Below are positions 3,001 to 4,241 of a stretch of DNA of 4,241 bases, in pieces. Made by a program: the position numbers. Origin of the DNA: a virus. Lineage: Duplodnaviria > Heunggongvirae > Uroviricota > Caudoviricetes. Every line of letters starts with the position of its first letter. Within the stretch, counting starts at the first letter, position 1. The stretch lies in IMG/VR virus record IMGVR_UViG_2648501400_000017; one strand, 5' to 3'.

Positions 3001-4241
3001 CAAGATCTTATTAGTGTGGTATTAAGTAAGGTATAATATTTTTATACAGCCATATTTTTTATATATATTTATTTGTTAAGGGGGTTTTGATATGTTACCA
3101 ACAAGTGGCTCTTCAGCAAATCTTTATTCATGGATGTATGTATCAGGAAGAGGTAACCCTTCGACTCCGGAATCAGTAAGTGAACTTAATCATAATCATT
3201 TTCTTACTCCTGAATTACAAGATAAACTTGATGTTATGAACTCTATATACTCAAATGCCAGAAATAGTAATGAGCTTGAGGAAATTTATCAAGAGCTAAG
3301 TGCTTTTGTAAGTGGGCTGATGGATAAGAGAAATAGTGTATTTGAGGTGAGAAATGAAAATACTGATGAGGTTGTCGGAGCACTGAGGGAGGGGATGACG
3401 ATAGATGACAGGGATGGTTATATCAGGGAGCTTTTTTTTCTGTATTCATTGAAAGTAAAAATTGAGGAAAGTAGACAAGGTAAAGAAGGTTCTAAATGTA
3501 AAGTTTATGGTCTGTTATGTCCGCATCACTCTTCAGAGCTATATGGTGATCTACGAGCAATGAAATGTCTTGTGGAAGGATGCAGTGATGATTTTGATCC
3601 TTTTGATATTATTAGGGTGCCGGATCTTACCTACAACAAAGGAGCTTTACAATGTGGATGATTAGAGGGAGGTCCTGTGAGCCTGCTTATCATTTTGTGT
3701 AAACGCTTTTTTTAAAAGTGACCATCAAGGTGGCTACCAAGCTCGATTATAAAGTAGCATTGTCCATTTCTGTGATGTGGATTGCCAGCCAATCACTTTG
3801 TTTGCTGACTTGTAGTCGGGGATATCGGGGGCACCTTGCATTTCCTGACGGCGTGCTATACGACACCTCACTGTACACACGTAGTTACAAATTTACCCCA
3901 GCGCAATGGTCTCAGGAGAGGGGCGATTAATTTCATCAGATATTCTTCGTCAGAAGGTGGTGATTATCCATGATATTTGTGTATCGACTTTTTATAAGTA
4001 ACCGGCTCATTTAAACCGTCTGGTCTGTTTCCTCCGGCTCTACAAAAATAATGTCCATCATTTTTAATGGACACTATCGTATGAAACACCGGACCTGGAT
4101 CACTGAAGCTTTACGTCTTCACTTTGAAGAACATTTACCCCGGGTTGTGGCCGGGCGTCGCCTGGGTGTACCAAAATCAACAGTTTGTAATATGTTCGTG
4201 CGCTTTCGGAGAGCTGGCCTTTCGTGGCCTTTGCCCGCAGG

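Follow-up and report, generated by a model that had tools for sequence, protein, structure and literature searches.

The stretch of DNA analyzed here, in the following called the window, comprises 4241 nucleotides of the IMG/VR virus record IMGVR_UViG_2648501400_000017 (Caudoviricetes) and is identical in extent to the complete draft contig JHSW01000097.1 of assembly GCA_001266175.1. We find that its last 244 bp, positions 3998–4241, are the left end of an ordinary multicopy insertion sequence (IS) of the IS66 family (ISCro1/IS679 type), situated in plus orientation in non-coding prophage DNA 337 bp past the stop codon of nleF, and we would put the probability of this identification at roughly 0.9, with no result speaking against it. 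A sequence-only reading of the same DNA had correctly seen a mobile element downstream of nleF and had assigned it to the IS21 family; that assignment is not borne out, as the DNA is 99.6–100% identical to complete elements that carry an IS66 tnpB together with an IS66 DDE transposase gene.

Identification of the element

Using positions 3990–4241 as a megablast query against complete E. coli genomes, matches to genes annotated as 'IS66-like element accessory protein TnpA' were obtained at 98.8–100% identity in 1,746 of 5,426 genomes, a single genome holding as many as 18 copies of the IS. The longer query 3662–4241, used in the same manner, was split at position 3998. Complete copies of the element are 2699 bp long, end in ...GAGTCGCTTAC, and are annotated with tnpA, tnpB and then 'IS66-like element ISCro1 family transposase', with tnpA and tnpB overlapping in a TGATG junction and with the DDE transposase gene tnpC coming next.

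The 63 residues encoded by the window were matched by the NCBIfam model NF038385 (IS66_access_TnpA) with an E-value of 1.5e-20 and 73.6 bits over 50 of 190 profile positions, which is below the full-length cut-off, and the full open reading frame (ORF) of near-identical copies gave 295.8 bits with that model (cut-off 150) and also matched PF01527 (HTH_Tnp_1; E 8.6e-15). The tnpB product of the full copies was matched by IS66_TnpB (NF033819, 129 bits; PF05717 being the tnpB family), and that of tnpC by transpos_IS66 (NF033517, 478 bits) as well as DDE_Tnp_IS66 (PF03050, E 2e-103). An IS66-type first gene, coding for an accessory TnpA of the HTH_Tnp_1 type, was thereby found both in the window fragment and in the full ORF, and the 5'-GTAA that starts IS66-type terminal repeats is present at positions 3998–4001.

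The contig stops at 4241 because a multicopy IS breaks short-read assemblies. Since that point is inside the IS, the window covers just 244 bp of this copy, and neither its right end nor the target duplication, nor any loss of prophage DNA, is in view. All three genes of IS66 (IS679) were reportedly found by Han and coworkers in 2001 to be necessary for transposition. The element is an already known and very common IS, with thousands of TnpA copies, and the finding is ordinary overall; both the names IS679 and ISCro1 are in use (PMC3072379). As a separate observation, Pantoea stewartii ATCC 8199 was found to hold at least 70 copies of relatives of several subtypes (L012–L088), representing a massive IS66 expansion.

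The features of the window treated in this text are the following, given with position, strand and description.

3662–3997, no strand: non-coding prophage DNA from the nleF stop codon to the IS, collinear with IS-free loci
3990–3997, no strand: TTTTATAA, the 8 bp adjoining the IS tip, expected to be the target-site duplication if the insertion was a simple one
3998–4241, plus strand: left end (first 244 bp) of the 2699-bp IS66-family IS, by its identity to full copies
3998–4023, plus strand: left terminal inverted repeat GTAACCGGCTCATTTAAACCGTCTGG, about 26 bp, with its tip given by six flanks
4032–4040, plus strand: second conserved non-coding block, CTCCGG(C/T)TC, with a mean pairwise identity among relatives of 0.88 versus 0.39 for the adjacent spacer
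4048–4077, no strand: conserved palindrome with the core TGTCCAT (4052–4058) and ATGGACA (4067–4073) and the loop CATTTTTA (4059–4066)
4051–4053, plus strand: upstream in-frame ATG inside the left palindrome arm, used as start by PGAP and probably not the real start
4081–4241, plus strand: 5' part of tnpA, 53 codons, encoding an IstA-like N-terminal helix-turn-helix (HTH) region, matched by NF038385 and with a start that is kept in relatives
4213–4236, plus strand: segment coding for AGLSWPLP, from translation

Insertion site and junction

The tip of the IS is G3998 (GTAACCGG...), which is exactly where the sequence shared by six copies in different flanks begins (GTAACCGGCTC...), and the start at 3978 proposed before was 20 bp too far to the left. 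With the tip at this position, 337 bp separate the nleF stop codon from the IS, and the description of the IS as lying directly downstream of nleF thus has to be modified. A search for the IS termini had also been suggested: the left terminal repeat could be located, whereas on the prophage side the window holds only the left 8-bp flank. Between the left and the right terminal repeat (GTAAGCGACTCGTCAGAACCGTATTG), 18 of 26 positions match as counted by hand. Read inward, the right end of the full copies starts with GTAAGCG..., all relatives begin with GTAA(N)CG, and the mean pairwise identity of the left terminal repeat among relatives is 0.86. The second conserved block, CTCCGG(C/T)TC, is not retained by L171 and L174, the relatives that are most distant. 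Perfect 8-bp duplications surround two full copies (L005, TTTTATGT; L007, CTAAAATC) and four relatives (L011, L016, L049 and L051).

Two further observations concern the left terminal repeat. Its first 18 nt are tandemly duplicated in a metagenomic copy (GTAACCGGCTCATTTAAA GTAACCGGCTCATTTAAACC..., L138 1399–1434), and a scan reported a terminator-like hairpin, CGGTTTAAATGAGCCG with a T-rich tail, on the minus strand at window positions 4003–4018, hence inside the repeat and reading outward.

On the prophage side, window positions 298–3998 are collinear with the loci of an O103:H2 strain (L001) and an O145 strain (L002) at 99.4–99.6% identity, with the gene order tail fibre, nleB2, nleC fragment, frameshifted nleH and nleF. 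Positions 3662–3998 were found at 100% identity over 337 nt in many of the complete E. coli genomes, with no annotation there. In the IS-free O145 locus, ...TTTTATAAG runs straight into AGGTTTC at the insertion point, past which there is a YkgJ pseudogene fragment, a weak tRNA-like fragment and then, about 1 kb on, yodB. The prophage-side sequence of IS-free relatives hence goes on past the insertion point.

The window's junction itself was seen nowhere else. No match to the exact junction GTATCGACTTTTTATAAGTAACCGGCTCATTTAAACC was found in species-representative genomes or viral contigs, megablast against complete E. coli genomes, phages and plasmids gave no contiguous junction, and an NleF look-up returned only the window's own contig. 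This absence of the junction from the complete genomes, plasmids, phage records and species-representative genomes searched could be taken to mean that the 3997/3998 boundary arose through IS-mediated adjacent deletion, or through recombination between IS copies, with removal of prophage or chromosomal DNA, and so could the finding that in three complete genomes this IS sits, equally oriented, 621 bp downstream of the window's site, with an imperfect 6/8 duplication there. We nonetheless regard such a rearrangement as unlikely. The flank TTTTATAA fits the target preference of the element, as judged from 55 distinct flanks in which the central target positions are A/T-rich, and it equals the flank of another, unrelated insertion. 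An independent insertion is the simplest reading of the junction, and predicts that the right end of the element should read ...GCTTAC followed by TTTTATAAGAGGTTTCTGG.

As regards the site 621 bp farther from nleF, the same IS is found there in E. coli O103:H2 strain 129 (L001 6951–6958 and 9658–9665). Its duplication agrees at 6 of 8 bp, where the left copy is 2 bp short as compared with the empty site CGTTTTCT.

Relationship of TnpA to IstA of IS21

The sequence-only reading had described the end of the window as an IstA-like transposase N-terminus having an HTH and an AGLSWPLP motif. Both the HTH-type N-terminus of the first ORF and the motif, encoded at 4213–4236, are real, and the region is indeed homologous to the HTH of IS21 IstA; the protein, however, is the accessory TnpA of IS66 and not a transposase. 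Judged by sequence comparison, TnpA starts with an HTH domain of ~70 residues that is homologous to the N-termini found in a subgroup of IS21 IstA proteins. A word-indexed search with the 80-residue N-terminus recovered IS66 fragments only, and the IstA relatives required an exhaustive profile search: 1.84 billion proteins were compared, with no word index, to a profile of the N-terminal domain, and 1,169 of them were found at E ≤0.001. Ten longer proteins having this N-terminal match were scanned, and all ten matched the IS21 transposase model, while also weakly matching the IS66 TnpA model. One of them (P0272, 511 residues) had a profile E-value of 1.7e-8, scored 275 bits with the IS21 model and had an IstB gene next to its own; in BLASTP, TnpA residues 7–73 aligned with residues 11–77 of this protein at 40% identity over 67 residues (E 2e-15; RFRASGLSWPLPA versus RFRRAGLSWPLPA). 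A search of PDB sequences with the N-terminal domain gave no match. We also noted that the NCBIfam IS66 TnpA model cross-matches IstA proteins (P0272, P0233 and P0286) at E-values of 1e-12 to 1e-17.

The GLSWPLP motif is accordingly a feature of the IstA subgroup that is also found in the long-TnpA clade of IS66, and on its own does not define IS21. The original IS21 call is understandable, since an N-terminus of ~70 residues including this motif is truly homologous to IstA. That the element would nevertheless be an IS21-family IS, and the ORF the N-terminus of an IstA transposase, is to be considered exceedingly improbable: the likeness to a genuine 511-residue IstA and the ambiguity of a protein fragment with just 53 codons in view speak for it, but in the near-identical full copies the next genes are IS66 tnpB and the DDE transposase gene with no IstB or IstA catalytic domain, the full ORF ends at 215–225 residues without any DDE domain, and the IS has a GTAA... 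tip and 8-bp duplications. The IS21 transposase model NF033546 gave no match at E-values up to 10 with either the window fragment or the full ORF, and BLASTP revealed no significant similarity to IstA of IS100. The left end shows a single GTAA-type repeat and one palindrome, and IS21-type multiple direct repeats are not present there. Repeated TTCAGCTGATCGCGACC units were seen at the ends of two other elements (L169 and L170), the former being an IS21 relative in which IstB is present.

Conservation of the palindrome

A perfect TGTCCAT-N8-ATGGACA palindrome upstream of the tnpA start had been reported together with an in-frame ATG in its left arm, and both were confirmed, with the ATG at 4051–4053 and with 7 nt (4074–4080) between the right arm and ATG 4081 in place of the claimed 8 bp. 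The arms can be extended to 11 nt with one A.C mismatch (ATAATGTCCAT, 4048–4058; ATGGACACTAT, 4067–4077). As such the structure is not exceptional: perfect 7-bp inverted repeats with loops of 3–12 nt occur in 13 overlapping instances at about seven places in the window, compared with 3.6 ± 2.2 in Markov shuffles, and an RNA fold of 61 nt over the palindrome gave a z-score of −0.8. The palindrome exceeds chance only through its conservation in diverged relatives.

These relatives were collected from species-representative genomes, from metagenomes (mostly close relatives) and by contig look-ups, giving more than 20 distinct left ends with TnpA proteins being as little as 52–66% identical. The palindrome is carried by elements of Escherichia, Citrobacter, Pantoea, Erwinia, Xenorhabdus, Photorhabdus, Scandinavium and metagenomes. 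Mean pairwise identity of the extended arms is 0.95 (left) and 0.91 (right); third codon positions reach 0.53 and the adjacent spacer 0.39 by the same measure, and the core GTCC/GGAC is invariant. The left arm starts 55 nt from the IS tip in all 20 tabulated variants, and L171 is off by one base; the loop varies between 7 and 15 nt, mostly by slippage in a T-run, and the right arm is found 6–8 nt from a conserved ATG or GTG. When a model of 12 pairs was considered, three flanking pairs had changed on both sides (A-T to G-C, A-T to C-G and T-A to C-G). The motif was not found at the right end of the IS, nor in one short-TnpA IS66 element that was examined. The L171 lineage keeps the left arm only, and a degenerate copy (L140) has no right arm. 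On these comparisons the palindrome is a conserved, left-end-specific and non-coding element.

With regard to the loop, its T-run (window 4061–4065) was seen as T5, T6, T7 or longer among near-identical copies (L137, L138, L132, L157 and L158), resembling slipped-strand variation. In another variant, of the L050 type, a mosaic TnpA comes with the palindrome form AATGTCC-N15-GGACATT, having a spacer that is partly self-complementary.

The start codon of tnpA

The window translates into MSIIFNGHYR-MKHRTWITEALRLHFEEHLPRVVAGRRLGVPKSTVCNMFVRFRRAGLSWPLPA, read from ATG 4051 and then through ATG 4081, from which the protein starts with MKHRTW.... In the RefSeq/PGAP annotation the coding sequence (L001 7012–7689; WP_001339397.1, 225 residues) begins at the equivalent of ATG 4051. 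That start is probably 10 codons too far upstream, with the real start being the equivalent of 4081, which would give a protein of 215 residues. An ATG or GTG is kept at the 4081 equivalent in all relatives, many TnpA homologues are called at 214–215 residues, and the NF038385 match begins at residue 13 of the protein started at 4051. Among relatives, the reading frame that begins at the upstream ATG is disrupted by a TAG (L012), a 9-nt loop (L016), a 7-nt loop (L011) or a +1 shift (L051–L053), so that the palindrome is non-coding and the true start would lie at the 4081 equivalent.

Two HTH regions were indicated in TnpA by profile scans, one IstA-like and one IS2-InsA-like, and a weak match, short of the cut-off of the model, was obtained to 'IS2 repressor TnpA' (E 1.7e-8). 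Mosaic TnpA variants were also encountered (L050 316–963 and L161–L167), with an N-terminal part of ~90 residues that is strongly diverged and a C-terminal half near-identical to that of the E. coli type.

Possible functions of the palindrome

Given the position of the palindrome, its restriction to the left end and its conservation, we infer that it may control expression of the tnpA-tnpB-tnpC operon. The reading that we tentatively prefer, at somewhat less than even odds, is that the palindrome is a DNA site, or operator, for an HTH protein encoded by the IS, most plausibly TnpA, which would be an autorepressor whose binding spans the AT-rich, −10-like loop as well as the translation start. 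Autorepression is also known from the small HTH proteins of IS1, IS2 and IS911. An operator would be consistent with the invariant GTCC/GGAC, with the fixed distance to the IS tip, with L171 having kept just its left arm, with the co-occurrence of the palindrome and a long TnpA and with the two HTH regions of TnpA.

The palindrome might instead work as RNA, and not as a protein-binding DNA site; we consider this quite conceivable, albeit not probable. One form of that idea, in itself rather unlikely, is a fold-back hairpin of the sense strand, in which the left arm of read-through transcripts (here from nleF) would pair with the right arm and thereby block translation, in analogy with IS10 and IS50, where fold-back inhibition blocks translation of read-through transcripts. 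The right arm holds the sole Shine-Dalgarno-like GGA before the start codon, and its constant distance of 6–8 nt from that codon would suit such a function. Another form, for which we see a still smaller likelihood, is that the opposite strand is the active one, where the palindrome would form a terminator or the hairpin of an antisense RNA. For RNA in general speaks that the arms are kept while the loop length is free, and that the flanking pairs covary. For the minus strand, a folding energy of −16 kcal/mol was predicted (z −5.8, window sequence), versus −8.6 kcal/mol for the plus strand, with −16 to −18 kcal/mol in common variants; the minus strand was the more stable in 21 of 23 variants, a U-rich tail follows next in most of them, and plus-strand C.A mismatches in two variants (L113 and L168) become G.U pairs on the minus strand. 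However, the core arms show no compensatory change, L171 has no right arm to pair with, the U-tract is missing in L012, L050 and L174, and it is hard to see what the element would gain from a minus-strand function. Despite its minus-strand fold, the palindrome was not called by the terminator scan, and by eye no antisense promoter was seen in codons 1–25.

Several results weigh against a control function of the palindrome, and the first two of them bear on its function as RNA. The plus-strand hairpin of the E. coli type is weak, owing to its A.C mismatch. Pairs of the G.U type arising from single-side transitions number about 4 on the plus strand and about 5 on the minus strand (hand count), which is balanced and favours neither strand. 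A half-site spacing of 7–15 bp would be odd for a dimeric operator, no sigma-70-like promoter passed the scan on either strand, and no Rfam family was matched at E ≤1. The covariation score, in turn, speaks for the palindrome: it was 0.136, versus 0.089 for shuffles, of which 2 out of 500 attained it, but as the sequences are related to each other these shuffles overstate its significance.

Promoter elements picked by hand (AATAAT at 4047–4052; TTTAAT in the loop) were not consistently supported across relatives, and no promoter is claimed. In the Pantoea stewartii variant of the L012 type (L012 3490–3530), the palindrome loop contains a perfect TATAAT, preceded at a distance of 15 bp by a perfect TTGACA; no other variant has the two consensus promoter hexamers together.

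It is very unlikely that the palindrome has no function of its own and is conserved merely as a coding N-terminal extension from ATG 4051, by chance or by recent ancestry; in favour of this stand the PGAP start inside the left arm, the expectation of one 7-bp inverted repeat by chance and the many copies that are near-identical recent duplicates, but the DNA motif persists in relatives where a stop, a changed loop length or a frameshift interrupts the upstream frame, conservation of the arms is far above that of neutral sites while TnpA is only 52–66% identical, and compensatory changes are found at three flanking pairs.

Flanking prophage DNA

Identity to the related loci is lower in the first part of the window, where positions 1–302, encoding the tail fibre's C-terminal region, are just 92.7% (L001) to 97.0% (L002) identical, which suggests a recombination boundary near position 300. 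The nleC gene is present as a 96-codon fragment only (1517–1807), and nleH is split into two ORFs (2201–2905 and 2902–3036); the near-identical loci of complete genomes are annotated with an incomplete nleC and a frameshifted nleH, respectively. About 380 bp past the insertion point in IS-free loci there is a tRNA-like 3' fragment (...GGTTCAAATCCCCCTCTCTCCGCCA, L002 5721–5772). At the IS-free locus ARAGORN called no tRNA, and Rfam gave a weak tRNA- or tmRNA-like fragment below gathering scores. The fragment may be a remnant of a prophage attachment site.

Discussion

The result of this analysis is a routine one, in that the family call of an IS was corrected and the stop of the contig explained. 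The window allows no conclusion as to whether the IS marks the distal boundary of the effector locus, as the sequence-only reading had proposed, or has truncated that locus. Neither the palindrome nor the HTH domain that TnpA has in common with IstA amounts to a discovery; both are side results of modest weight. One practical consequence is that family calls made from fragments at contig ends are open to error, with long TnpA proteins of IS66 and an IstA subgroup sharing their N-terminal HTH. To our knowledge the regulation of IS66 elements is essentially unstudied, and the conserved left-end palindrome offers a concrete target for such studies. A wider proposal, which we put forward as speculative and on balance doubtful, is that TGTCCAT-N(7–15)-ATGGACA might be an undescribed control element of the long-TnpA IS66 clade, read by the HTH shared with IstA, so that a module for reading IS ends would have been exchanged between IS families and reused as an autoregulator.

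Compared with known systems, the element agrees with those of the ISCro1/IS679 type of IS66 in its near-identical DNA over all 244 bp, in the GTAA... repeats, in the 8-bp duplications, and, as seen in the full copies, in the tnpA-tnpB-tnpC order and the long TnpA of 215 residues. There is no sequence difference from these elements, and only its insertion site 337 bp past nleF was without a match in the searched collections.

With IstA of IS21 the likeness is confined to the N-terminus. The first HTH of IstA (HTH-1, residues 1–39) makes contact with a conserved stretch within the terminal repeats (PMC10122671), and its region is alignable with TnpA over ~67 residues at 40% identity, with (A/S)GLSWPLP being common to both. 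In contrast to IstA, TnpA has neither a DDE catalytic domain nor an IstB partner, and the IS ends are of IS66 type; the reading of IS ends is known for IstA, whereas for TnpA it would be a putative function.

The inverted repeat of the present element, whose 3' arm extends into the ribosome-binding region just in front of the start codon of the first IS gene, also recalls the fold-back of IS10 and IS50 and the stem-loop in the 5'-untranslated region of IS200. It differs from these by the weakness of the stem in the E. coli type (−8.6 kcal/mol) and by core arms that are invariant and do not covary. As compared with the regulators InsA of IS2, InsA of IS1 and OrfA of IS911, which attach to the left IS end and thereby repress the promoter of the transposase, the half-site spacing is variable in the present element, and both binding and repression by TnpA are putative. 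Like these regulators, TnpA has an HTH_Tnp_1 domain, and as with them a conserved palindrome is found between the terminal repeat and the start codon.

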